From positions 3,072 to 67,071 of the IMG/VR virus record IMGVR_UViG_2731639221_000003: a DNA stretch of 64,000 bases, one strand, 5' to 3'. Made by a program: the position numbers and the translations under genes. The notes below the pieces were generated by a model. That model was not told the origin of the DNA, did not search any database, and saw only the letters and a program-made list of their open reading frames with translations. The stretch is from a virus. Of this stretch, positions 3,065 through 51,019 are shown one piece after another (the stretch's first letter is position 1; each line of letters begins with the position of its first letter).

Positions 3065-3092
3065 AATTCTGGTCGGGGATTATTAAATTGTT

Positions 3093-36456: not shown

Positions 36457-37020
36457 TTATTTGCTGTTACATTTCAATTTTGGAGGGTCATAAGAGTTCA
36501 TTCCCTTATTGGTAACTACTCTTTTAAATTGGGATAAGTCTTTTTTACAGAAATAATAATGTGCCCCTCTAATTTTTTCATTTATGACAAATTCAGGATA
36601 AGCCTTTTCATCATTTATAAAAGTTGAATCTATTTGATTGTATTTAGACAGTACATTAACTATTTCGTTCGATAATATCTGAGTGGAATCCCCCCAATAT
36701 ATTAATTTATTATTCCGTTCTATATAATGTGATGGAAAAATATTCGTTTCTGCTCCAATTTTATCTTTCGTACTTGGATAGATTTTATTTTCATGTACGC
36801 TTGAAATACTGACTCCCAATATATCATCATTATCAATATAGATATTTACTGAAAAAACGCTGTCTGTTTTCTGCAAACTGCATTTATCCAGAAAATCGTT
36901 TACAGCTATTCTAATTGCCTCATTACGCAAATCGTCATTATAAACTCTATTTTGCATAGCAGCACAGCAAATAAAAAGGATAGCCAACCCAAAAATCAAT
37001 TTTAAGTTTAAAATATTCAT
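36457..37020 (-). CDS. Putative immunity protein (exported) for the upstream JAB toxin
   Basis: Signal peptide; starts 3 bp after the toxin stop. Confidence 0.5.
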   Translation of the reverse strand: MNILNLKLIFGLAILFICCAAMQNRVYNDDLRNEAIRIAVNDFLDKCSLQKTDSVFSVNIYIDNDDILGVSISSVHENKIYPSTKDKIGAETNIFPSHYIERNNKLIYWGDSTQILSNEIVNVLSKYNQIDSTFINDEKAYPEFVINEKIRGAHYYFCKKDLSQFKRVVTNKGMNSYDPPKLKCNSK

Positions 37021-37022
37021 AA

Positions 37023-37976
37023 TTAATATTCTATTGGTGAATAGCCTAGTGTAAGAATTGTAAACTTCTTCACCTGTTTATGATACTTTTGAGTATTGCT
37101 TTTACCATTTAAGTCCTGTTCGGAAGGTCTTGTTTTATCGCTAACGGCTGCTCGTGAGGGGTGTGTATGCCAATCAGTATGTTCATAAAGATTACCCATT
37201 ACAGAAGGATAGTCCCTTTGCCCATTATAATTTTTGTATGCTTTATCATATTTATTGTTTTCATATTTACCGATATGAACATTGCTAATGTTTTCAGTTC
37301 CTTTATTTGCAAGATCATATCCGCTTATCTCAACACCAACCATTTCAGAAAAATTCATAATAAAATCTTGAACACCACTCAATGTAGCCTGATTTTCTCC
37401 ACCGACTGCTACGAGGTTATTTTCAGTTTTAAAATTAATGCCATCCTTCAAAATTCCTTTCTCAATACCATCCATTCGGGTTTTTGCTTCTCCCTTTTTA
37501 TTTGTTTGCAAGGTATAAGTGTCGGTTTTCTTATCATATTTGAATTTTCCAATCTGATCTGTTTTATCGTTATTTTGCACAGCAAGAGTAAATTGTCCCG
37601 ACTTATCATCAAAACGGTAAATATCCCGTCCGTCTGGGTCGATAAATTTAATTGGATTATTTGCGGCATAAGCATAGGGTGAAATCCAGTAATATCTCTC
37701 GCAATGAGGATCAATAGACATCGCAGCCGTAGCCGCAGGGATGTCAATAGTTGTTTGTCCTTCATCGAGAACTTTTACGATCTGTTTCGTCTTGGTGTCG
37801 AACAATACAGAACCGATTTCAACCATATCCGTCTGGTCGTGAAATTCTTCAAATTCGCCTTTGGATGAAGTGGCGACCAATAGATCATAGCCTAATTTTT
37901 GAAACGGATTCACCGTTTGACAAAAAATATAAATGGGAATTAACGTAAAGATTAAGGTAAATAACAATTTTTTCAT
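37023..37976 (-). CDS. Signal-peptide mini-Rhs polymorphic toxin with a C-terminal JAB-like domain
   Basis: SIDPHCERYYWISPYAYAANNPIKFIDPDG (Rhs core end / DPxG cleavage motif) with no YD repeats; HTHPS...PSEQD JAB motif. Confidence 0.75.
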   Translation of the reverse strand: MKKLLFTLIFTLIPIYIFCQTVNPFQKLGYDLLVATSSKGEFEEFHDQTDMVEIGSVLFDTKTKQIVKVLDEGQTTIDIPAATAAMSIDPHCERYYWISPYAYAANNPIKFIDPDGRDIYRFDDKSGQFTLAVQNNDKTDQIGKFKYDKKTDTYTLQTNKKGEAKTRMDGIEKGILKDGINFKTENNLVAVGGENQATLSGVQDFIMNFSEMVGVEISGYDLANKGTENISNVHIGKYENNKYDKAYKNYNGQRDYPSVMGNLYEHTDWHTHPSRAAVSDKTRPSEQDLNGKSNTQKYHKQVKKFTILTLGYSPIEY

Positions 37977-38075
37977 AATGCTCTGATTGTTATGTGTTTT
38001 TTATACGAGTAATACGCACGAAATATATTAATATTTGTTTAAATAACAAAGTGTTTCTCAATTTATTTTAATAAT

Positions 38076-38555
38076 TTATCTGCGAAATCTTGGGTTAAAC
38101 GGAATGTATAATTTGTAGGCTATATTTATACCGTCTTGGGAGGCAGGAATCCATTGCTGAACTTTCGAGAATGATGCCAGAACCAATTTGACATAGCCAT
38201 CGCATTTATTGATATTCTTAGATTTTTTCCTCCTTTCTTCTTTTCCATAACAAACAACATTCCCTTTGGAATCTATAATTGCATATATTGTCAAAGGTCT
38301 TACATAAATAGAATCGCCGTTTTCGTCAACTAGGCTTAGGGGAATTTTCAAATCCCTTATTACTATGTCAGTGATAGCCTGATTATCGGGCAATCGGGGC
38401 GGTGTATCAGATTGCAGGAACACAGGTTCATTTAATAATGAATCTTTGCAACAAGAACATTTTACATTATCGTTGTTTTCGGAATAGTTGTTCTGTGCGA
38501 AACCGACATAATATGACAGGTTTATTATAAATAGAAGCAATATAAGTTTTTTCAT
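38076..38555 (-). CDS. Exported TonB C-terminal-like protein; possible immunity or accessory factor
   Basis: Signal peptide; AIIDSKGNV...WIPASQDG...YIP pattern of TonB-C domains. Confidence 0.5.
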   Translation of the reverse strand: MKKLILLLFIINLSYYVGFAQNNYSENNDNVKCSCCKDSLLNEPVFLQSDTPPRLPDNQAITDIVIRDLKIPLSLVDENGDSIYVRPLTIYAIIDSKGNVVCYGKEERRKKSKNINKCDGYVKLVLASFSKVQQWIPASQDGINIAYKLYIPFNPRFRR

Positions 38556-38564
38556 TTGGTTTAT

Positions 38565-40157
38565 TCATTTAGGTCTAATTTGTTCCTCTAATTCTTTACC
38601 GGGGAAATTTGCTTCATCCCAATATGTGTCCCATTCCGATCTGATGTGTGAGGCTTCGGCTACGTCTTGGACTGTCCCTTTTCCTTTTTGCTGCCTGTCA
38701 ATTTCATTGAATATAAACTGTAATTGTCCTTTAGTGATGTATTCGGGACGTTTTAATTTCCAAAGATCGCTTAGTTTCTTCCCATCAATTATTTTAACAT
38801 CATAATTCATAATATTGTAGGCGATATTTGGGTCTGTTCCCTGAACCGTAATAAGGCGTTCCCATCCTATATTAATCAGTTTGGTATCTTCCGCTTGTGT
38901 CAAGGCAAAAGGGTGGTGCAAACGTAATGTATGGAGTAATTCGTGTACTCCGCTTTCTCCTAAGTCTGTGGTTAAAAAGGAATCGTCGATAGGCATTGAT
39001 TCGACTTTGGCATGAACGTCAGTCGTTTGAGTTCCTAATGTGAAAAATCCTTCTACCTTTTTGGCTTCTTCGATAATGTCAAGTTTGGGGACAACTTGCG
39101 GTGGTTCTTTGGTATATGTCCCGTCAAAGAACAGCTTACCTGTTACCAGCCCGTCCGAAGACAATTCAAGTGTTCGTTTGAATTGGTTGTTTACTGCTTC
39201 CTTGTAATCACCTTCGGTACAGCCCATTGCCAAATAGTTTACTTTAGATTCAATATTGGCGAATATTTTTAATAATCCACCATCTTTAATCCACGTCCAT
39301 CCGAAATTCTCTTTTAGTTCTCCGACTTTATTATCGTTATAGTAAAATTCGATATTACCAAAATTCTGATTATCTGCTTTAAAGTCACATTCTACTTTAA
39401 AGTACGGGATTGTCATTGTGCCGTTTTCCTCAATCGTACCGTTGATTGTAAATTCTTTGGCTTGCCCTTTTATTCGTCTGCCTTTGTTTTGTTTTACGGT
39501 AAACTCTACATTGTCACCTTCGGTAAATTTGCTAAATTCAATTTCTAAATCAGTCGAATGATTCAGCATTATATCTTTACGCTCAATACCTCTTTCCCGT
39601 CCTTTCCAATAAATACGCTTTATAGCGGGTTCGGCTTTTTCCTGCGGTTGTCCTCCTTGTTGGTTTATATCGGTCTGCTTCCAGTTCTTTTGGAACACGA
39701 GTTGTTTATTGACACGTATAGTCGCAGGCGAGATTGTGAAGGCTAGTATCATAGGTATGTTAGAATATGCACTATGATGTTCCGAAATTTCAGTTATCCA
39801 CGCATCCCAAAACTCGATACGTCGCATAGGCATATATTCGTCTTTGTGGTCGTATAGTTCTATCACACCATGATTTAGGTATGTACGCCCCTCTTTTAGA
39901 TTTGATTTGAACCAGTGATAGAAAAAATCGTCGTCGTCGGTCGATTCCATTGTGAAGTCGAAAAGTCCGCCCAATGGTTCGCCGTAACGTCTGAAAGCAT
40001 AGGGCGAGGCTTTGGCGACCGCCATATAATCGTATAGTGTTGGATATGTTTTAGTGACTTTTGAAAAGTCGACACCCCACATGTCAAAAAGGTAATTGTG
40101 ATAAGTTAATAAGGTGCGTTCTTCACCTTCTACTTTCAGTATTGCTTTAAATGCCAT
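38565..40157 (-). CDS. tssD: TssD (Bacteroidetes T6SS Hcp) fused to a C-terminal zinc metallopeptidase effector
   Basis: N-terminal MAFKAILKVEG...GVIELY...RRIEFWDAWITEISE...FTISPATI; C-terminal HELLHTLRLHH and NIMNY Met-turn; -7 box TATATTTG at 40228-40221 places the start at 40157. Confidence 0.75.
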   Translation of the reverse strand: MAFKAILKVEGEERTLLTYHNYLFDMWGVDFSKVTKTYPTLYDYMAVAKASPYAFRRYGEPLGGLFDFTMESTDDDDFFYHWFKSNLKEGRTYLNHGVIELYDHKDEYMPMRRIEFWDAWITEISEHHSAYSNIPMILAFTISPATIRVNKQLVFQKNWKQTDINQQGGQPQEKAEPAIKRIYWKGRERGIERKDIMLNHSTDLEIEFSKFTEGDNVEFTVKQNKGRRIKGQAKEFTINGTIEENGTMTIPYFKVECDFKADNQNFGNIEFYYNDNKVGELKENFGWTWIKDGGLLKIFANIESKVNYLAMGCTEGDYKEAVNNQFKRTLELSSDGLVTGKLFFDGTYTKEPPQVVPKLDIIEEAKKVEGFFTLGTQTTDVHAKVESMPIDDSFLTTDLGESGVHELLHTLRLHHPFALTQAEDTKLINIGWERLITVQGTDPNIAYNIMNYDVKIIDGKKLSDLWKLKRPEYITKGQLQFIFNEIDRQQKGKGTVQDVAEASHIRSEWDTYWDEANFPGKELEEQIRPK

Positions 40158-40294
40158 AGTGTGTTTTATTAATTGTGTTAGAAGAAATTGTTTGTGAAGT
40201 ATATAAAAACACTCCACAAACAAATATATAAAGATATGGTTGTGAATTAAACTTTTTTTTAAATTATTCTATCTAAATAGAATAATTTAAAAAT

Positions 40295-41956
40295 CTATTC
40301 AGGATATAACAGAGCTTTTATATTAAATTCATTCATTCCCGCCTGATGTAATTTTCGCTCAATATTCCATTTGATGTCAGTAAGATTAAATGTATTTCCT
40401 TTGCTATCTATTATAAATGCAATGGCTTCTTCGGAATATTGAAGGTGACATAACATCAATATTATAAGATCGGTGTCGGTTAACGCTCCCGAAAGTTTTT
40501 TACCGAGATAGAGGTCACTTGAAAGATAGTCTTTAGCCACGATCAATAATTGTTCGTTGGTTTGCTTTTTCAATGCGTCAACCATTGCCTTGATTTCGAT
40601 ATAGATTTCTATGTCTATTTCTTCCCTTCCTGTCAATAATATTTGGTTGACTTTGGTTTCTATGTCAGACCACCCGATGATGAAGTGTTCATACACATTT
40701 TCAAGGTAGCTTTTACTTGCTATGCTGTGTTCGAATAATCGGTCTTGCGTTAAGGAATGTACTTTTTCTTCCAGTTTTTTTAGTTTTTTGTATTTCCTTT
40801 TACGGCAAAACATAATTGCCAACAGCATCAAGATAAAAACTGTGACTTGCAGTAATACAAAGAATTTTCTTTCTGCTTTATGTTCTTGTTCCTGAATCTG
40901 CAACTGATATTTGTTTTCAGCGTTGAACAGTTTTTCGGTACTTCTTTCCTCCAATATCTTTTGGTTAGCTTCCATTTGTAATCCTTTATAATAAAGGGCT
41001 TGGCTGACATCGCCTATTTGTGAGTTATAATCGGATAATGAACCGTAAATACTTTCAAGTAAATAGTTATCTTTAATTGCAGAGACTTGGTTTTTAATTA
41101 AGTCTGTATAATATTTAGCTGAATCGGGTTTGCTTTTTTCGTTATACAATAAGGAGAGGTTCAGATATATTTTGAGCGAATCTTTGGTATTAGCTGTTTG
41201 CTCTAAAGCCTTACTCAGATAAACGGTTGATTTATCATACTGCTTCATCCTCATAGTGATATATCCTAAGTTATAGGCTTGTATGGCTTTATGCTCGGCA
41301 TTGTCCGTTTCATTTGCCAAATCCAATGATTTGTTGAAAAAGTAATATGCACTGTCTAACTTGTTCGCCAGATCATACGAACGCCCTAACGCTGACATAA
41401 CCTGTAATCGCCTTATACCTGTTTCGGATTCGTTGTTATATAGATTCAGTGCATCGTGTAAATGTACAATGGAGCTATCGGTAATGCCTTGTTCCAAGTA
41501 TATATTTCCTAAGAAATGAAGGCTTTTGGCTGCCAGCATCGTATTTTTGGCTTTACGGGAATACGCTGTTGCGAGCAAAAATGAGTTAAGAGCTTTTTCG
41601 GGTACGTGTTGTGAACGATATACTGTCCCCGCATAAAAGTTAGCAACTGCGGCTTTGTCAAAATTACTTATGTCATTGTAATATTTCTGAGCTTCAAATA
41701 CAAGAGTGTCGCCAGTTATATCTTCATCGTTATTGTATCTTGCTTGTACACGGGTTACTACATATTGCATGTAGTTGCCTTTTCCCATTTTTTCGGGGCT
41801 TTTAATTGAATCGAGCAGAATAATGGCATTTGATGGATTGTTTGCTGCCTCATTTTGAGCCTGTTTTAGCAAGTCCACTGAACGGTTATCTGTACATGAA
41901 AACAAAAAAAGTAGTACGATTGGGAATAAGGTGCTTTTTTGTAATGATATTGTCAT
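40295..41956 (-). CDS. Membrane-spanning TPR sensor/regulator (exported TPRs, TM helix, degenerate LuxR-like HTH)
   Basis: LLFLFSC signal, TPR repeats, TM FFVLLQVTVFILMLLAIMFC, C-terminal LTDTDLIILML...EEAIAFII...IERKL. Confidence 0.7.
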   Translation of the reverse strand: MTISLQKSTLFPIVLLFLFSCTDNRSVDLLKQAQNEAANNPSNAIILLDSIKSPEKMGKGNYMQYVVTRVQARYNNDEDITGDTLVFEAQKYYNDISNFDKAAVANFYAGTVYRSQHVPEKALNSFLLATAYSRKAKNTMLAAKSLHFLGNIYLEQGITDSSIVHLHDALNLYNNESETGIRRLQVMSALGRSYDLANKLDSAYYFFNKSLDLANETDNAEHKAIQAYNLGYITMRMKQYDKSTVYLSKALEQTANTKDSLKIYLNLSLLYNEKSKPDSAKYYTDLIKNQVSAIKDNYLLESIYGSLSDYNSQIGDVSQALYYKGLQMEANQKILEERSTEKLFNAENKYQLQIQEQEHKAERKFFVLLQVTVFILMLLAIMFCRKRKYKKLKKLEEKVHSLTQDRLFEHSIASKSYLENVYEHFIIGWSDIETKVNQILLTGREEIDIEIYIEIKAMVDALKKQTNEQLLIVAKDYLSSDLYLGKKLSGALTDTDLIILMLCHLQYSEEAIAFIIDSKGNTFNLTDIKWNIERKLHQAGMNEFNIKALLYPE

Positions 41957-42061
41957 AGAAGTGAGAATTTGGTTCTAATGCTCAGGAATCCCTAAACCCG
42001 TTATTAAACAGGCTTAGAAATTGGTGTTGGTATATCTCCTTAGAGACTGTTACTATTCAGA

Positions 42062-42376
42062 TTATTTGATACTGTCGCTATCCTGATCGGTAGCTATACT
42101 TTCTTTGGGTGTATCAACAAATTGACTTTTGGGGTCGCCACTTCCTCCCGTATTTCCCAGACCGGCAGAAAACACTTGTGGTTGCGGGTTAGAAATTAGT
42201 GTGTCGCTACTGTTTTTAACTACTTGATTTGCGTTTTTCAATGACTCTATTTTGGGATCACCGCTACCGCCTGTATTGCCCAGACCCATATCTTCTATTT
42301 CGGCATTGGAACAGGAAGAAAAAACAAATACAATGGAACATAGTAAACTGAAAAAGGTAAAGCATTTAATTTTCAT
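42062..42376 (-). CDS. Small lipoprotein with two identical GLGNTGGSGDPK peptides
   Basis: Lipobox-like VFSSC; repeats at 42251-42286 and 42128-42163 differ at 7 synonymous and 0 non-synonymous sites. Confidence 0.75.
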   Translation of the reverse strand: MKIKCFTFFSLLCSIVFVFSSCSNAEIEDMGLGNTGGSGDPKIESLKNANQVVKNSSDTLISNPQPQVFSAGLGNTGGSGDPKSQFVDTPKESIATDQDSDSIK

Positions 42377-43057: not shown

Positions 43058-43513
43058 ATGGCACAAAACTATAAACCTTGTCTGTTTCAGAAAATAGCGG
43101 GTAATACACCTGTAAGGGACAGTATGGAATGGGGTATTTATATAAAAAGTGTCCCCTTTAAAGTATTCCCCGACATCAAAGAACCGCCTTCCCGTGACTG
43201 GATGGATGAACACGGGGACGATGAATATTTATCTAATACCCCCTACTACAAAGCATACGAGATTGATTGTCAGTTTGTCTTTATCGGGACGAACGGAACA
43301 GCCAATACCAAAATCAAAGCCTTTCTGAGCTATCTGGCAGAGGGTGGCAAATTCAGGATGTACGACACTTATACAAAAATAGGGCGTACCGATGTACGCT
43401 ATGTCAGCTACTCGGAAGATGTGTTTTACCGCCGTGAAGGGCAGGACGATGTAGTTATGTTCTCTGTGAAGTTGAAAGTAAACGACCCTATTACGGACAT
43501 AAGCCTCCCCTAA
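43058..43513 (+). CDS. Distal tail protein (Dit-like)
   Basis: 151 aa; DWMDEHGDDEY...LKVNDP; position upstream of the hub gene. Confidence 0.65.
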   Translation: MAQNYKPCLFQKIAGNTPVRDSMEWGIYIKSVPFKVFPDIKEPPSRDWMDEHGDDEYLSNTPYYKAYEIDCQFVFIGTNGTANTKIKAFLSYLAEGGKFRMYDTYTKIGRTDVRYVSYSEDVFYRREGQDDVVMFSVKLKVNDPITDISLP

Positions 43514-43531
43514 CCCCTCCAAAGGAGGGGA
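43504..43531. repeat. REP-like palindrome CCTCCCCTAACCCCTCC-AAA-GGAGGGG
   Basis: C-rich leader plus hairpin at the gene end. Confidence 0.5.
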
Positions 43532-43571
43532 AGAAAGACGCAAAGCGATTAAAACACAACCTTAATACAAA

Positions 43572-46553
43572 ATGCTACACTTATACTCGAAAGACGGAAA
43601 AATACAGAAAGCCGAGATACATAAGTTTACCTATCAGGGGACTTTCTTAGGCGAGTGCTTCGTTTCGGCTAAAATAGAAACGGAGTACCCTGTTTATTTC
43701 GAGATCGGAGATTATTTTGACTATCGGGGAGAAAGGTTTACACTGAACTATATCCCAGCCAAACAGAAACAAGCCCGAAAAGGAACATACGGCTCTGCCT
43801 TCGTTTACGACAATATCAAATTTAACTCGCTTGCCGACGAACTGACACGGGTTGAATTTCTGGACGTTGTATTGCAGGACAACGGCATCCATTATACAAG
43901 TCTGCCCGACTTTTCTTTCTATGCAAACAATGTAAAAGACTTGGCAGACCGCATACAAGCAAATTTGAACCGAGTATATAGCGGTGCGGAACAATGGGTC
44001 GTGATCGTATCAAATGATATTATTACCAAAGACAAGGTTATCAATGTCAGCAAAATAAACTGTTGGGATGCAGTGGCACTGGCAAGCTCGGAGTTCGGGG
44101 TAAACTTTATTGTCAGAAACCGAACTATCACCATCGGTACGGCTGGTATGGCGGTGGGTAAGGTATTCGGCTACGGAAAAGGGAAAGGGTTGTATGATAT
44201 ACAGCAAACAACGAATGAGGATGCACTGATTATTACACGCCTGAGAGCCTATGGAAACACCCGAAATATCCCCAACCGATATTATAACAAGATCAAAAAA
44301 GCGAACGGTCAGCCCTATATTTCTGACGGGGTATATATCCCTAATCTGATGCTGCCTTCTTTCCCTTATACCATTGCTGACCCTGCGAAGGTATTTATCG
44401 ACTCCCCGAAAATGGCAGAATACGGCTTGCGGGAAGGCTCTGTTCACTTCGATGGCTCGGACGATCTGCCCGACATCTTTCCGTCACTGGAGGGCATGAC
44501 AAAGCAGCAACTTTCGGATGCAGGAATATATGTCTCTCTCCAAAATGGGGATAACGGAAATATAGACGAGTGCCTGAGTGCCGATAATCCCACCGATAGC
44601 GGCGAACTGCCCGAAGAAGGAAGCGGAGAGATACCCGCCGAGTTTACCATTTACCTGAAAGATTTGGGTTTCGACCTGTCCGAAAAAGACAATAACAAGC
44701 AATATAAATTTGCTACTTCGGACACGATGCAGATAAGCATGACAAGCGGTATGTGTGCCGGACGTATATTCGATGTGATGGATAACGGCATAGTCAAAGA
44801 TACGGTTCAGGGGTTTACTCGTTATAAAATAACCTGTAAACGTTTTACGGACGACACCATAGCAGGGGGAACGGCTTTTCCGAACAACTTATATAAAGTA
44901 AACGCAGGGGATAAGTTTGTCATTCTCGGTATTGAAATGCCTGATGTCTATGTAAAGGCGGCAGCTCAGCGATTACAGATGGCAGCAAAAGACTATCTGC
45001 CCCTACACGATGAAACGAAATATACTTATACCCCGAAGATCGACGAAATCTTTATGGCAAATAACCCCGCTATCGGGGAGAGCATCAAAGAGGGCGATAT
45101 ACTCAATTTTGACGATACCGACCTAGAGATTGATGCTTCGGTCATTATTCAGACCTTAAAAATAGAAGTGGGTGCGAAGTTAGTTCCCACTTACGAAGTG
45201 ACATTAAGCAACGAACGAGTAACAGGGGCAATCGAAAAAATGCAGAACGCTATCTCTCAACTGGCTTCGAACAATACAGGGATAACAATAGACCAAGTAA
45301 AATCGCTGATTGCGTCCTATGGCACTAAGTATTTCCTAAGCCGTGTATTTGACGATACAGCAGAAGGGAATATTACATTTGTTCAAAACGTATCGGTGGA
45401 AAAGGAATTAACGGTATTCGATACGGTCACGGCAAAAAAAGATGTCGTTTCCAATCAGTTCGGGAACTCAACCTTTACTTCGGGACAATTCGGCTCCGGC
45501 TTTCGTGTGTGGCAGAACCCGAACAACGGGCAGTCATACGGCGAGATTGATAATTTAATGGTACGCCGTGATACAATTTTCAACAGGCTGACAATTGCAG
45601 ATATAAAAAGCGTCGGCGGTCAGATATTGTTATCTCTCGCAAATATGTTATGTTCGGATGTGATAACACAGGCTGATGGTTTTGTATGCTATTTCGATAC
45701 AGCAGAAGGAACTATTATTAATCAGTTTGCCCTTAACGACCAAGTAATCTGCCGACGATTCAACGGACAGAATATTAAATACTACTGGCGAAGGGTCACG
45801 GCTATCGGAACAGACTATTTAAAACTATCGAAAACGGATGCTGACGGATCTGGTGTACCCACAAAAGGCGACGAAATGATACAGTTCGGAAACCGTACCG
45901 ACGCAAACAGGCAGTCGGCTATCCTGATTTCGGCTTACGGCTTCGATGCACCGAGCTTCAAGCAGTATGCAGGGATTAACAGCTACGATCTGACAGGAAA
46001 AGAAGTCACTGCAATTACACCTTCGGGGAATAAGTTTACAGGTACTTTCGAGGTAAAAAGCGGCAACCAAAGCATAAGAGTACCAGCAGATCGGGGAACA
46101 TGGTCTAACGGAATGGTCTGCTATTACTACGACCGTGTATCGTATAACGGGGCATTATGGCTCTGTATTGTTCCCGACGGACAAACGACTACTGAAATAC
46201 CTTCCCTTAGTTCTGCGTATTGGCAGAAGCAAGTAGCAGAAGGCAAATCGCTGCGTCTGGAGAAATTCGCTACACCGAGCTACGAGTTTTACAGACCGAG
46301 CCAACCATATAACGCAACAATCAGTGTCCGTGTATTCGAATCGGACGAGGATATAACACCTGACATGGATATTCACCAATTCAAATGGGAACGTATTTCT
46401 GAGAATACGTTGAACGACCCGACTTGGAACGAACTTCATGTGAATGCGGGGAATACTGTAACCCTGACAGAACAGGACTTATCCGGCGACACGACATTCG
46501 TATGCACGTTTCTTGACTTAATACAAAACAAAACACTAACAGCAAAATTCTAA
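43572..46553 (+). CDS. Tail hub / minor tail protein (Tal-like)
   Basis: 993 aa; IITRLRAYGNTRNIP, YGKGKGLY; follows the Dit-like gene. Confidence 0.8.
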   Translation: MLHLYSKDGKIQKAEIHKFTYQGTFLGECFVSAKIETEYPVYFEIGDYFDYRGERFTLNYIPAKQKQARKGTYGSAFVYDNIKFNSLADELTRVEFLDVVLQDNGIHYTSLPDFSFYANNVKDLADRIQANLNRVYSGAEQWVVIVSNDIITKDKVINVSKINCWDAVALASSEFGVNFIVRNRTITIGTAGMAVGKVFGYGKGKGLYDIQQTTNEDALIITRLRAYGNTRNIPNRYYNKIKKANGQPYISDGVYIPNLMLPSFPYTIADPAKVFIDSPKMAEYGLREGSVHFDGSDDLPDIFPSLEGMTKQQLSDAGIYVSLQNGDNGNIDECLSADNPTDSGELPEEGSGEIPAEFTIYLKDLGFDLSEKDNNKQYKFATSDTMQISMTSGMCAGRIFDVMDNGIVKDTVQGFTRYKITCKRFTDDTIAGGTAFPNNLYKVNAGDKFVILGIEMPDVYVKAAAQRLQMAAKDYLPLHDETKYTYTPKIDEIFMANNPAIGESIKEGDILNFDDTDLEIDASVIIQTLKIEVGAKLVPTYEVTLSNERVTGAIEKMQNAISQLASNNTGITIDQVKSLIASYGTKYFLSRVFDDTAEGNITFVQNVSVEKELTVFDTVTAKKDVVSNQFGNSTFTSGQFGSGFRVWQNPNNGQSYGEIDNLMVRRDTIFNRLTIADIKSVGGQILLSLANMLCSDVITQADGFVCYFDTAEGTIINQFALNDQVICRRFNGQNIKYYWRRVTAIGTDYLKLSKTDADGSGVPTKGDEMIQFGNRTDANRQSAILISAYGFDAPSFKQYAGINSYDLTGKEVTAITPSGNKFTGTFEVKSGNQSIRVPADRGTWSNGMVCYYYDRVSYNGALWLCIVPDGQTTTEIPSLSSAYWQKQVAEGKSLRLEKFATPSYEFYRPSQPYNATISVRVFESDEDITPDMDIHQFKWERISENTLNDPTWNELHVNAGNTVTLTEQDLSGDTTFVCTFLDLIQNKTLTAKF

Positions 46554-46558
46554 CTCAC

Positions 46559-47602
46559 ATGGCAGTATTAGCACAACAACAATTTACTATCAGGCGATTG
46601 ATTGACGGGAAAACACTAAACTTTCTGTTACAATCCAATCAGGCACTTACTCAAATCTACACGCCCGATCCAGCGACTTATACGCCCAATTGGGCGACAA
46701 CGAACTTAAAAATTACACCTGACCTTTTAGTTTCAGGGGAAACAGGAACACAGATCGCACGTTTAAAAGCCGCCCCGACATGGAAGATAAACGGAAGTAC
46801 TACGCTTACAACTTTCGGGGCTACCGCAGCGACTACCGCACCCTACGCCCTGACGATCAATAAAAATATGGATTCAGTGAATCAGTTGGTAATCGAGTGT
46901 AACGCTATTTACGTTCAGCCCGTTTCTTTGGCAGAAATGCCTGTTTCGGCGACTATGACCTTTACAAAAGTTGCCAACACAGGGGCAAGTATTATAGCCG
47001 TATGTACGGCGGCTGACGGTGTGATTTTCAAAAACAGCAGCATCACTTCGCTATCGGCTGAGTGCGATATGTGGCGGGGTGCTGAGATCGACAGTACAAA
47101 CGTAACTTATCGCTGGTTTATCAAGACTTCGGGGGCTTATGTGGAATTAACTTCGGCAAACGCAGCTACATATAACGTTGCAGGCTACACGACACGAAAG
47201 ATCACAATTCCCAATAGTGCAGTACTAAATTATGCGACATTCAAATGCACAATAAAGGACACTGACACGGGAAGCTCGACCTATAACAAGGAAGTAACGG
47301 ACACGATTTCATTTATAGATATGAGTGACCCGTATGATATTCGTATGGATTTTCCACTTGGAAACGGTATTTCGACAGGGGCTTCTATAACCGCTAAAAT
47401 AGACGTGTATCAGGGGGCAACTAAAATGGCTGATACTTTCTTTACAGGTAAGACATGCCGATTTTTCCGTAACAATGCAAGTGGAGTCCTTGATACGACT
47501 TGGGGTACGAGTGGATATAAAACGGGACGTTCAATTACTTTAACAGAAGCTGATCTGCTTTCTACTTATCAGACGGTTTTCGGGGTAGAACTCAATGGAT
47601 AA
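46559..47602 (+). CDS. Minor tail protein with Ig-like beta modules
   Basis: Thr-rich beta protein in the tail module; N-terminus resembles that of 47690..51019. Confidence 0.7.
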   Translation: MAVLAQQQFTIRRLIDGKTLNFLLQSNQALTQIYTPDPATYTPNWATTNLKITPDLLVSGETGTQIARLKAAPTWKINGSTTLTTFGATAATTAPYALTINKNMDSVNQLVIECNAIYVQPVSLAEMPVSATMTFTKVANTGASIIAVCTAADGVIFKNSSITSLSAECDMWRGAEIDSTNVTYRWFIKTSGAYVELTSANAATYNVAGYTTRKITIPNSAVLNYATFKCTIKDTDTGSSTYNKEVTDTISFIDMSDPYDIRMDFPLGNGISTGASITAKIDVYQGATKMADTFFTGKTCRFFRNNASGVLDTTWGTSGYKTGRSITLTEADLLSTYQTVFGVELNG

Positions 47603-47605
47603 ACA

Positions 47606-47651
47606 CCTCTCCCAACCACCTCACCCCAGCCCTCTCCAAAAGAGAGGGGGC
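47606..47651. repeat. REP-like palindrome CCTCACCCCAGCCCTCTCC-AAAA-GAGAGGGGG
   Basis: C-rich leader plus hairpin after the stop codon. Confidence 0.5.
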
Positions 47652-47689
47652 TTTAATTACTTACAAATAACCTTGACACAAATAATACT

Positions 47690-50600
47690 ATGGCTCTTAT
47701 AGCACAGGGACAATTTACGATTAAAAGAGCAGCAAAGGACGGGCAATATACGGTAAACCAATATGCGAAAAGCACATCGGATGCGGTAGCCCCTGCGAGT
47801 GGGTGGGCTTCGAGTCCTCCTACCTTAGTGGCGGGCGAATACCTTTGGATGCGAACAGGTTTGGTTATACCTCCAGCCACTACACCTACAAGCTGGACGT
47901 TACCCGTCAGGATTAGCGGCGACAAGGGTAATCAGGGCGATGCGGGGACACTCAATTATATTGAATGGAAAGATTCATGGACTGTCGGCAATTCAGCAAT
48001 TGCAGGATGGGGAAACAACGGTACAACCGATGAAAACATTCGTGAAATGGGTAAAAATCCATTCGGTTTACAATCTATGCTCTGGAAATGTATTCCCAAT
48101 TTGGACGGGAACGCTGCCGGCGGTTGGGTTACAAATCCCATTCTGCTGGATACAAAATATGCTTACCGTTACTCGGTATTCGTCAAAAAAGTGAAATCAG
48201 GAACTACCTATCACGGATGTTATGAAGTAGTGAACCTTAACGGCACGGCAAATACGAATCCTTACTTCTGGTCTGGTACTACTCTGAGAACGAATGAATG
48301 GTTTTTAATGGTGGGTATCATTCATCCGTATGCTGTAACTACTAATAGCGGAATAGGCGGAGTTTACGATATGGCAGGGCGTTTGTTTTCAAGTGGAACT
48401 GATTATAAATTCAACGCTTCTAACCAAGCGGTAAGGTTCAGGTCGTATTTGTTCTATTCGAGCGATGCGACGGATTTGCAATATTTTTTCAATCCGATGG
48501 TGCATCGGCTCGATGGGACAGAACCGAGTATTAATGATCTGTTACAGGTTCAGACCGCTTCGGTTGTCGATACTTCATTCAAGGTGCTGGACGATAAGAT
48601 TATTACAAAAGCGAACCAAACGGATTTTACAGCCTTACAAGGCAGGGTTACTTCGGCTGAATCGACCATCGTACAACAGGGAACTAAAATTGAATCGACC
48701 GTTACAAAAGTAGACGGAAAGAACGCTGTTTATAAGTCGCTGACATCGGGTACGACGGACAGACCCGTTATACCTTACGCAAAGAATGACCTTTGGATAA
48801 CATATACGGGTGAAATAAAGCAAAGCACGGTGACACGGCTTACAGGGTCTTTTACTGATTCGGATTGGATAGCAACCACAAAATATACAGACGATACGGC
48901 AGCCACCAACGCACAAAACACAGCCGTAAAGAAAATACGTTATATCCGGGACTGGCTGAACGGCAGTACCGCCAACACGGGCAACCATTGGGTGCAGATT
49001 ATGGCTCTAAATACGGCGGGAACAAATGTTGCACTGAATAAGACCGTATCGGGGGATTCGACCAATACACGCATAACCAACGGTAGTACTGACTCAGCTT
49101 CTTATGTGTCAGTAGCAGAAGGGCTGAGATATGTTGTCGTAGATTTAGGTGCGGTATCTGAAATATCGAAAGTGAAAGTATGGCACTATAACCTAGACAG
49201 CAGGACATACTATAAAACAAAAACCGAAGCCTCTGCCGATGGCATAAACTGGTTTCCGTTGTTTGACTCGGCAATCGAGGGGACATATAAAGAATCGACG
49301 GCTGGCAGGACGTATTATGTAAGGGACTATGATAATAACGCTGTTTCGGGACTGAGAAACCGCACCTATTACTCTGATGCCACACCCGCAGTTCCCGAAG
49401 TGGGGCATAAGGAAGGCGATTTGTGGTATAAAATCAGCCTGACAAACGGTTGCTATACTACTTACAGGTGGAACGGCTCGGCATGGGCGGTTATCAACGA
49501 ATATGTGTCGAAAGCCCAACAGACAATAACAGATACCTCGATCACGAACCTTGTTACAAAAACGGGTATCAATTCACTGGGTACGGGCGAGACTCTGATT
49601 TCGAAGATAAACCAGACAGCAGACAATATTACCCTTGAAGTGGGAAAGGTACAGATCGGGGGAAGGAATTTACTTTTAAATTCGAATTTCGTTGTTTCCC
49701 CGGACTTTACAAGCTGGGGAACAAATGGGGGTACTAGGACTATCGAAGCCGATGCAACTTTCGGGAAAGTGACGAAAATAGTGGCTACGGGGGGTAGTCA
49801 GGGGATATATCAAAATCCGGCTACAAGGCGGACTTCGGGCAAGAACTATGTTATTTCGGGGTATATGAAAGCGGCAGCCAATATGAATGTGTCTTTTTCG
49901 CATGAAGGGGGTACAGGATCGAAGGCTTTTGCGGTAACTACCGCTTGGCAGCGTTTCGAAACGCAGGGTACGTGGACGAGTGGCGGCAGCGTATGTTTCT
50001 ATTCGGGCGGGGCGGGTACTTTTTATCTGGCAAACTTGCAATACGAGGAAGGAACAAAATCGTCGGCATGGTCGCCAGCACCCGAAGATATACCTCATAT
50101 AGCGGGGTCGGCACTTAGTATATCCGATAATAAAATAATACTTGCAAGTAGTTCTATCATAATGAAAGGTACAGCTATTACAGAAGCTATTAAAGCACAG
50201 ACTGCACAATTCGGGGGCTTTACGGTTAGTGGGGACAGGTTCGAGTCGATAGCCAAGACAGACAATGTGCCTAACTTGTTCCTTGACGGAAAAAACGGAA
50301 CTGCATTTTTGAGAGGTGGTTTGCTGACTCCGTTTAAAAACGGGACATACAGGCTAAATTCAGGCGGTGGTGCGACTTTTTCGACATACGGTTTGCAGGA
50401 CAACAACAATGTAGTGATAACAGGTGATACACTGGGTTGGACGATTGCTTTTGTTGTGCCATTTACAAAGGAATATAATGGTTTTCGTGCAACGATCATT
50501 AATGAAAAGTTCGAGAGCAAAACACCTGTTGGGAATATATCGGCATCTGCTCCGAATGGTATGTATTTTTTTGAGAACGGGGTCAAAAAAACGGAACTAA

Positions 50601-51019
50601 CTATACAGAAATACGAAGGGGTGGATATGATCGGCTATGGTGAAGGGAATAACTTTTACGGATGGATAATTTTGAATAGGTTCAATACGAACTCCTATAA
50701 TCAGTCTGGGTTCGGACTGAAACTGTATAATATCGGTATGGTAAGAAGCGGTACGATAATCAAACAGACGACTCCTGACCCGATTTCGAGTATTACCCGT
50801 GTGTCGGAAGGTAGGTATAAGTTGACTTTCCAGACCCCATTCTCCAGTGCAAATAATTATATAGTTTTCTTAACGTGTGAAACAACTTCATATATGGGGC
50901 GTTTTGCGAATGTGACCGCCAAGACGACGACTTATTTTGAGGTGTACACAGGTGACGACTCGACACCGAACGACGGGGATTTCAATTTTATGGTGGTTTC
51001 TACATTGAACTGGACATAA
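47690..51019 (+). CDS. Tail fibre / receptor-binding protein with carbohydrate-binding modules
   Basis: 1109 aa; F5/8-type-C-like VVVDLGAVSEISKVKVWHY...S.DG..W; CBM4/9-like GGRNLLLNSNF...LQYEEGTKSSAWSPAPED. Confidence 0.8.
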   Translation: MALIAQGQFTIKRAAKDGQYTVNQYAKSTSDAVAPASGWASSPPTLVAGEYLWMRTGLVIPPATTPTSWTLPVRISGDKGNQGDAGTLNYIEWKDSWTVGNSAIAGWGNNGTTDENIREMGKNPFGLQSMLWKCIPNLDGNAAGGWVTNPILLDTKYAYRYSVFVKKVKSGTTYHGCYEVVNLNGTANTNPYFWSGTTLRTNEWFLMVGIIHPYAVTTNSGIGGVYDMAGRLFSSGTDYKFNASNQAVRFRSYLFYSSDATDLQYFFNPMVHRLDGTEPSINDLLQVQTASVVDTSFKVLDDKIITKANQTDFTALQGRVTSAESTIVQQGTKIESTVTKVDGKNAVYKSLTSGTTDRPVIPYAKNDLWITYTGEIKQSTVTRLTGSFTDSDWIATTKYTDDTAATNAQNTAVKKIRYIRDWLNGSTANTGNHWVQIMALNTAGTNVALNKTVSGDSTNTRITNGSTDSASYVSVAEGLRYVVVDLGAVSEISKVKVWHYNLDSRTYYKTKTEASADGINWFPLFDSAIEGTYKESTAGRTYYVRDYDNNAVSGLRNRTYYSDATPAVPEVGHKEGDLWYKISLTNGCYTTYRWNGSAWAVINEYVSKAQQTITDTSITNLVTKTGINSLGTGETLISKINQTADNITLEVGKVQIGGRNLLLNSNFVVSPDFTSWGTNGGTRTIEADATFGKVTKIVATGGSQGIYQNPATRRTSGKNYVISGYMKAAANMNVSFSHEGGTGSKAFAVTTAWQRFETQGTWTSGGSVCFYSGGAGTFYLANLQYEEGTKSSAWSPAPEDIPHIAGSALSISDNKIILASSSIIMKGTAITEAIKAQTAQFGGFTVSGDRFESIAKTDNVPNLFLDGKNGTAFLRGGLLTPFKNGTYRLNSGGGATFSTYGLQDNNNVVITGDTLGWTIAFVVPFTKEYNGFRATIINEKFESKTPVGNISASAPNGMYFFENGVKKTELTIQKYEGVDMIGYGEGNNFYGWIILNRFNTNSYNQSGFGLKLYNIGMVRSGTIIKQTTPDPISSITRVSEGRYKLTFQTPFSSANNYIVFLTCETTSYMGRFANVTAKTTTYFEVYTGDDSTPNDGDFNFMVVSTLNWT

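Follow-up and report, generated by a model that had tools for sequence, protein, structure and literature searches.

The window analysed here is a stretch of 64,000 nucleotides from the IMG/VR virus record IMGVR_UViG_2731639221_000003 (positions 3,072 to 67,071 of that record), and coordinates given without a locus handle refer to it. The interval 36457-37976 of this window holds two minus-strand genes, a putative toxin gene (P0001, 37023-37976, 317 amino acids) and a gene for a candidate immunity protein (36457-37020, 187 amino acids). Behind them on the same strand lie the genes of two exported proteins, which we call helper A (35428-36447) and helper B (34066-35415). In this genome the toxin and the two helpers are each single-copy and contiguous. 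We think it likely that the four genes together (34066-37976, minus strand) make up an interbacterial-conflict cassette of toxin, immunity gene and helpers A and B, representing a Bacteroidota-wide class in which the toxin is held by its helpers. All features of the cassette described below are on the minus strand.

The open reading frame list and the sequence give the toxin gene as complete. Its stop-to-stop frame is only 325 codons, so a longer N-terminus is impossible. The protein begins with MKK, followed by 15 hydrophobic residues and then C-Q, which fits a Sec signal processed by signal peptidase I. On these sequence features, the signal peptide is assigned to residues 1-19 (37920-37976), with the cut predicted before Q20. 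This glutamine is at least 90% conserved, both among 54 aligned N-modules (the part of the protein before its C-terminal tip) and among 68 divergent members of the family, and a glutamine after the signal peptidase I site is expected under the Bacteroidetes Q-rule (PMC5837995). The mature protein starts with a family-specific N-domain (residues 20-79, 37740-37919) that carries an NPF..GY motif directly after the signal peptide. It continues into the end of an Rhs core (residues 80-116, 37629-37739) of the form DPxx-x20-DPxG, delimited by the TIGR03696 match, hhalign and invariant columns. The tip consists of a beta-rich first half (residues 117-190, 37407-37628), delimited by BLAST break points and the AlphaFold2 (AF2) model, and a second half (residues 191-317, 37026-37406) to which Foldseek and VIA-align assign a JAB/MPN metalloenzyme fold. 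In the AF2 model, built from an alignment of 78 sequences, residues 118-317 had a predicted local distance difference test score (pLDDT) above 90 and the N-module had values of 45-75, which makes a fold search on the N-module not meaningful. Searches of Pfam, NCBIfam and PHROGs returned no family for the N-domain, and when the whole toxin sequence was compared with those of solved structures, the only match was at chance level.

These results agree with what an initial annotation had noticed in the interval. The SIDP motif, which it put about 85 residues from the start, begins at residue 87; the core-end signature SPYAYAANNPIKFIDPDG finishes at residue 116, with DPDG at residues 113-116; and HTHPS and PSEQD are located at residues 270 and 284. 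The Sec-type signal that it described is present by sequence features, and the claim that the gene is a complete open reading frame rather than an orphan tip is borne out by its own start, signal peptide and N-domain in the 325-codon frame.

We found that the Rhs-like part of the toxin is confined to the core end. Residues 86-116 match positions 46-75 of the 76 in NCBIfam model TIGR03696 (Rhs_assc_core) with an E value of 2.9e-5 and 24.5 bits, a score that falls under the 32.5-bit cut-off because the toxin holds the end of the model only. When the alignment of the family N-modules was compared by hhalign with 27 true Rhs cores, a probability of 99.8% was obtained over residues 80-116 only, and no homology was seen upstream of residue 80. 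The idea that the N-domain is a diverged or degraded copy of the remaining Rhs-associated core was dropped on this ground; since the hhalign match covers residues 80-116 only, the N-domain is, as judged from sequence, a private domain and not a degraded Rhs core. The Pfam scan of the toxin contained neither PF05593 nor PF25023, the YD/RHS repeats, and the absence of YD repeats claimed earlier thus stands. Eight core-end residues (D89, P90, Y101, N107, P108, D113, P114 and G116) are invariant in the 54 aligned N-modules. In the 68 members of much greater divergence these columns were also unchanged, apart from P114, which is conserved to at least 90%, and the members that share these residues are otherwise 20-45% identical. 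Both DP motifs of the Rhs aspartyl-protease signature hold invariant residues, and their spacing is 20 residues. In characterised Rhs proteins the motif is DPXGX18DPXG, mutation of the aspartate in the second motif abolishes cleavage, and the DP motifs are 17-19 residues apart (PMC10684867, PMC8636562).

Next, the size of the family was determined with a profile of residues 20-87 (profile A2), which contains neither the signal peptide nor the core end. A search of 1.84 billion representative proteins yielded 1371 representative clusters at E<=1e-3, of which 832 reach E<=1e-10. The N-domain lies at about residues 20-90 of a protein of at most 368 amino acids in every one of the best 150 of these 1371 clusters. 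A search limited to longer proteins found none, which is weak evidence by itself. Together, the short lengths in the best 150 clusters and the failure to find longer carriers answer the concern that the N-terminus might be a remnant of a longer Rhs gene. With more than 800 clusters keeping just the final 37 core residues and both aspartates, the family allows a direct test of what constitutes the minimal Rhs release module.

With the whole protein as query, 333 relatives were obtained, which BLAST sorted into three kinds: full-length relatives, proteins that share the N-module, and fragments of genuine Rhs proteins. The N-module sharers, of about 310-350 amino acids, are 65-75% identical to the toxin over residues 1-118/119 and unrelated beyond, whereas the genuine Rhs fragments (PF05593 or PF25023) match it over residues ~86-317 only. 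The homology break point thus falls at residue 118/119, that is, after DPxG plus about one residue, and in classical Rhs toxins it also lies right after DPxG. The JAB tip of the toxin was itself found on true YD-repeat Rhs proteins, as expected under cassette exchange.

The tips are highly variable. The 72 near relatives carry 18 tip clusters. In an unbiased set of 105 members, namely those of the best 150 in which a core end could be recognised and was followed by 100 residues or more, BLAST separated 68 tip clusters with tips of 110-247 amino acids. Pfam matched 12 of the 68 cluster representatives. The toxin and effector families among these were TseH, Colicin_D, Toxin-JAB1, Tox-MPTase3, Ntox24, Tox-HNH-EHHH, Ntox10 and Tlde1, along with metallopeptidases; two matches, VWA7_N and Laminin_II, fell outside toxin families. 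A constant N-terminal part joined to unrelated C-terminal domains is the mark of polymorphic toxins as set out by Zhang et al. 2012, and by this modularity and tip exchange the N-domain family is a polymorphic toxin class. The variable C-termini that the initial annotation had anticipated are therefore present, and its proposal of a minimal Sec-exported class is supported, at the level of sequence, by short N-domain proteins with swapped tips. Members come from gut, insect-associated and environmental Bacteroidota and include the culturable Bacteroides salyersiae DSM 18765 (L018). Full-text literature searches turned up no account of this toxin family, and the class, which is large and Bacteroidota-wide, is apparently undescribed. 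Because about 85% of the tip clusters have no Pfam family, the N-domain profile can serve as a probe for new toxin and immunity domains.

The second half of the tip in the window is predicted to adopt the JAB fold. In a Foldseek search of the Protein Data Bank (PDB), JAB/MPN chains made up 46 of the 50 matches listed, including the whole top 28, with probabilities of 0.9-0.98. VIA-align superposed model residues 191-317 on Pyrococcus JAMM1 (PfJAMM1, 5ld9_B) with Z 10.4 and a root-mean-square deviation of 2.7 A over 105 residues. There were 92 chains with Z of at least 8; those among the matches listed were nearly all JAB/MPN, about 40 further such chains following PfJAMM1. The metal site appears intact, since E216, H270 and H272 are conserved in all 57 homologues, S285 in 54 and D288 in 56. 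The JAB domain named by the initial annotation is accordingly backed by the modelled fold and by the conserved E/HxH/S..D motif, and we regard the tip as a predicted JAB-fold toxin for which no subfamily is named. The H-T-H motif of the tip is consistent with the H[ST]H that Zhang et al. 2012 (PMC3482391) give for Tox-JAB-2. The beta-rich first half is partly common to two relatives that bear Toxin-JAB1 (P0103 and P0106).

As noted earlier, an exported gene follows the toxin closely: its ATG lies 2 nucleotides past the toxin stop codon. This gene (36457-37020) encodes a 187-residue protein with a lipoprotein-type signal, in which a cysteine ends the hydrophobic stretch. Homologues of it stand behind the same JAB tip in L010/L011 (75% identity) and L016 (35%), and in the few loci examined, other tips were followed by unrelated small genes. 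The downstream gene thus appears from these few loci to co-vary with the tip, as a cognate immunity gene of a polymorphic toxin does. No family for it was found in Pfam, NCBIfam or PHROGs. Zhang et al. 2012 (PMC3482391) tied a lipoprotein immunity protein, Imm65, to Tox-JAB-1, which parallels the candidate described here. Since the candidate is of the lipoprotein type, the JAB tip would act in the periplasm, and its most likely action would be that of an envelope peptidase or isopeptidase.

The two helpers are about 30% identical paralogues, each with a signal peptide; in some lineages the signal of helper A is of the lipoprotein type. Helper A (339 amino acids) is modelled as a transglutaminase-like core with TPR-like helices, the SirB1/menin fold, and has the triad C152-H178-E194; helper B (449 amino acids) has the corresponding triad C243-H269-E285. 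The two share the invariant blocks GxCxSxP, PxH and NxExT. The Cys-His-Glu triad formed by these blocks does not vary across 53 sequences, nor in the fusion proteins described below. Neither helper had a match in Pfam at E<=0.1, in NCBIfam or in PHROGs, so the fold assignment came from structure. The AF2 model of helper A (pLDDT 89) matched menin in the PDB by Foldseek (E 7e-4). In the Swiss-Prot part of the AlphaFold DB it matched UPF0162/SirB1/YchA proteins with E values of 2e-7 to 4e-4 (XF_1494 of UPF0162, 1.9e-7; SirB1, 4.5e-5) and the corresponding part of FBXO21. Its neighbours in the Atlas bear PF13369. Sequence identity to the SirB1/menin-type structures is 11-17%. By these models SirB1/YchA (UPF0162, Transglut_core2 + TPR), the substrate-binding region of FBXO21 and menin have the same overall fold as helper A. 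They differ from the helpers in that they are cytoplasmic or nuclear, whereas A and B are exported, toxin-tied paralogous pairs with a kept Cys-His-Glu triad. In menin, the transglutaminase-like core and the TPR-like helices form a peptide-binding pocket, and it is for binding peptides, rather than for enzyme activity, that menin and SirB1-type folds are mainly known. We also observed that B-type helpers (34066-35415; L010-L029) have a conserved proline-rich peptide, Q..[IVL]Px[IVL]PxP, right after the signal peptide, followed by a Q/N-rich linker of about 60-90 residues, and that A-type helpers are without either. This peptide could serve in anchoring or docking.

The linkage of the helpers to the toxin was examined in gene maps around the relatives, by tblastn of the window neighbours against 80 fetched loci, and in an even sample of 401 Bacteroidota genomes. 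Homologues of both A and B were found at every examined locus with a full N-module. The gene orders were toxin-immunity-A-B, B-toxin-immunity-A and A-B-toxin-immunity, and the loci came from Dysgonomonas, Bacteroides, Prevotellaceae, Chryseobacterium, Epilithonimonas, Taibaiella, Thermoflexibacter, Saprospiraceae and Lutibacter. In the 401-genome sample, the N-domain was present in seven genomes, and all seven had A and B within ~1-4 kb of it. Six further genomes had a match to the A3 profile without an N-domain match. Four of these were fetched: in three, whose genomes lack B, the helper is accompanied by a divergent N-module toxin, and the fourth (G283) had fusions. The other two, G041 and G316, with weak partial A3 matches, were left out of the locus comparison.

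Two loci of G283 encode a single protein composed of a signal peptide, the A domain, the N-module and a tip, one of the tips being JAB-like, and a B-type gene lies upstream of each. Furthermore, one A/B pair serves two toxins at L013 and one A serves two toxins at L102, which indicates that the helpers are constant machinery and not immunity proteins. The initial annotation had left the delivery route unknown. That gap is narrowed, as the toxin is always accompanied by one or two transglutaminase-like/TPR partners. We know of no role for bacterial members of the SirB1/menin fold, and the strict coupling and fusion with a toxin provide a first functional context for them. The two natural fusions are encoded at L098:5844-7877 (minus strand, 677 amino acids) and at L103:18-1688 (minus strand, 556 amino acids, cut by the contig end). 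The L103 protein retains an extra piece of canonical Rhs core, the GARMYD..LGKF stretch, before the core end, which hints at how the short family arose.

We then compared the cassette with systems already described. Classical Rhs/YD-repeat toxins (Rhs of the type VI secretion system, TcC and WapA) likewise end in DPxx-x20-DPxG followed by a variable tip, have an immunity gene downstream and exchange tips. The N-domain family, however, has no YD repeats, shell or N-terminal plug, is at most 368 amino acids long (best 150 of 1371 clusters) and keeps 37 core residues. The partners of classical Rhs toxins are VgrG/PAAR/Eag or TcA/TcB, whereas the N-domain family combines Sec export with dedicated transglutaminase-like partners. 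The toxin is therefore an Rhs derivative by descent, and it is not an Rhs family member by the YD-shell definition. Sec-dependent Bacteroidetes Rhs toxins were listed by Zhang et al. 2012 (PMC3482391). In section 19, the same authors described toxins with a signal peptide, an 'inactive transglutaminase' and RHS repeats, for which peptide binding or surface anchoring was proposed. Those proteins also join a transglutaminase-fold module to an Rhs-type toxin behind a signal peptide, in the same domain order as the G283 fusions. They have a degraded triad and an RHS array, whereas the helpers here have an invariant triad and TPR-like helices, are mostly encoded by one or more separate genes and go with a toxin that has no repeats; the two are set apart by description. 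Among the constant N-terminal anchoring modules of that survey are MafA/MafB-N and 'Microscilla-N' (PMC3482391). The latter, matched by description only, could be a one-species first sighting of the same N-domain.

The closest parallel in logic is MafB/MafA of Neisseria (PMC4287609; PMC3482391, section 37), which also combines a Sec signal, a constant N-domain, a polymorphic tip, an immunity gene and an exported non-polymorphic partner. The way across the outer membrane is not established for either system. MafB, however, has no sequence relation to the toxin, its partner has another fold, it belongs to another phylum and it contains no Rhs-derived segment. The Pfam scan of the toxin gave no match to MAFB-N (DUF1020), and the likeness is one of logic only.

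The proposed working of the cassette starts from the absence of a shell. The YD-repeat cage of Rhs toxins is thought necessary to hold the tip and to support aspartyl autocleavage, and in the cassette the helpers would stand in for it as holder and presenter. After Sec export, the poorly structured N-module would dock, probably by its NPF..GY head, into the TPR/transglutaminase pocket that helper A, or an A-B pair, provides. The tip would then be freed just after G116, either by the Rhs aspartyl motif folded on the helper or by the cysteine triad of the helper. From there it may reach the periplasm of a neighbouring cell without type VI or type IX secretion; outer-membrane vesicles, surface display, and release with transporter-mediated uptake are candidate routes. 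In the periplasm the JAB tip would act, likely as a peptidase or isopeptidase on the envelope. The type VI route is excluded in this model because searches for TssC and TssF gave no match and a Sec signal is present on the toxin, and type IX is probably not used because the C-terminus is the variable tip. The coupling to the helpers thus suggests a delivery route for Sec-exported Bacteroidota toxins that is neither type VI nor type IX.

Several observations weigh against the cassette as pictured above. Some lineages do without helper B, as the A-only systems of G081, G269 and G341 show, and an A-B pair can therefore not be universal. The core end of 37 residues is small against the Rhs C-terminal plug of ~95 residues, which normally lies within the shell (PMC8636562), and it may not cleave without one. 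It could also be kept mainly as a recombination handle with which tips of Rhs loci are captured. Colicin D and HNH tips, and some immunity candidates without a signal, need entry into the target cytoplasm, which the model does not explain. Finally, the tip cannot be placed clearly in Pfam Toxin-JAB1. Tox-JAB-1/Imm65 and Tox-JAB-2 (Zhang et al. 2012; PF15659) resemble the toxin in having a Bacteroidetes JAB-fold tip behind an Rhs core end and a lipoprotein immunity protein; the E, H[ST]H, S and D motif is present in the tip, and other N-domain members bear genuine PF15659 tips. However, hmmscan of the tip gave no Pfam Toxin-JAB1 (PF15659) match at E<=0.1, and its hhalign relation to tips that do bear PF15659 is weak (E 4e-4, 34% probability, 140 columns), although the E and HxHP positions align. 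The immunity candidate likewise lacks a Pfam match.

We next considered how far the role of the helpers might extend. It is possible, though on balance doubtful, that they are the core of an unrecognised export or delivery pathway, in which they would replace the Rhs shell, capture the Sec-exported N-module, fold and trigger the vestigial aspartyl protease (or do the cutting by their own triad), and move tips of some 70 or more kinds through the outer membrane to neighbouring cells. A rather unlikely alternative is that the core end is a recombination handle only and that A and/or B, as a cysteine peptidase or transglutaminase, cut or cross-link the toxin in the periplasm. The invariance of the Cys-His-Glu triad in A, B and the fused forms would fit such an enzyme. 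The core end is also the exact stretch held in common with true Rhs genes bearing the same tip, where exchange would occur, and only 37 of the ~95 plug residues are left. However, both aspartates and five other core-end residues are invariant at the protein level in divergent members, and a pure DNA handle would need none of them. The reputation of menin and SirB1-type folds as binders of peptides also speaks against a purely enzymatic helper.

The surroundings of the cassette bear on a further alternative. The window contains a siphovirus-like prophage (16598-51019) with portal, terminase and capsid genes, a tape measure gene (26985-32171) and tail proteins (43058-51019). Its tail module is broken into by a minus-strand island of ~9 kb (33244-42376), which holds the toxin cassette, a fusion of an Hcp domain to a second domain, and a TPR membrane protein. 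Since the island with the cassette lies inside the tail module, the conflict genes are phage cargo. A prophage-specific function of the cassette was considered and rejected, as the cassette in L010 is flanked by housekeeping genes. In addition, metagenome contigs span 34067-38031 and do not cover the phage flanks. On the evidence of L010 and these contigs, the cassette moves as a unit. It is improbable, in our judgement, that the toxin is a diffusible, bacteriocin-like protein, released alone or with A/B, perhaps by prophage lysis, that enters its target through an outer-membrane transporter with the N-domain as receptor-binding or translocation part. The protein is small and Sec-exported, the tips of the family include colicin D and HNH nucleases that need import, the cassette here lies in a prophage tail module, and for secreted toxins of Bacteroides, entry by way of SusCD-type transporters is known (PMC11467351). 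However, the N-domain of 60 residues is conserved phylum-wide, while receptor-binding parts normally vary; the cassette is found outside a prophage elsewhere (L010); and such a toxin leaves its strict coupling to the helpers and their fusion unexplained.

Contigs from runs X2-X4 and X6 relate to positions 34081-38058 of the window. Those of the RNA library (X6) extend over both helpers and the Hcp fusion, leave the toxin and the immunity gene uncovered and diverge at 36533, within the latter gene. The X6 sample probably contains a different toxin-immunity pair beside near-identical helpers. Coverage in this library was not accepted as a sign of expression, as DNA carry-over is possible.

The same genome has a classical Rhs locus on contig C36 (G000, ~29300-39200) with at least seven core-end matches within 10 kb, in frames of 61 to 1178+ amino acids. 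A main Rhs gene with an array of orphan tips behind it makes up the locus, which shares only residues 86-118 with the toxin. This shared segment, together with the occurrence of the same tip on true Rhs proteins, might suggest that the gene product is no functional toxin by itself and that the gene is a stray (orphan or displaced) Rhs tip which, with its immunity gene, is stored silently until it can recombine into the classical Rhs locus of this genome. We consider this highly improbable, because a start codon, a signal peptide and a conserved N-domain all belong to the gene itself, the N-domain defines 832 clusters at E<=1e-10 with the short architecture in all of the best 150, helper synteny is conserved across the phylum and the catalytic motif of the tip is intact.

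The Hcp fusion encoded at 38565-40223 (minus strand, 552 amino acids) consists of an Hcp/TssD domain (PF17642, E 1e-14) and a C-terminal HExxH..H domain. In L090, residues 309-548 of the fusion recur after an Rhs core end (28% identity, E 2e-24), which indicates that this part is a shared toxin domain. The gene between the fusion and the toxin (38076-38555) encodes a small exported protein unrelated to the toxin and may be the immunity gene of the Hcp fusion. TssC and TssF had no match in the genome, which is 99.99% complete, and the Hcp fusion was its sole TssD match. That the toxin is a type VI cargo effector working with this fusion, whose gene lies 600 bp upstream on the same strand, is barely credible and was rejected, since no TssC/TssF apparatus was found, a cleavable Sec signal is unfit for cytoplasmic loading and no Hcp gene stands beside the cassette in the other loci mapped. 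At the upstream end of the island, positions 42062-42376 (minus strand) encode a lipoprotein candidate of 104 amino acids with two copies of GLGNTGGSGDPK, and on the metagenome contig X4 the repeat at this position is rearranged.

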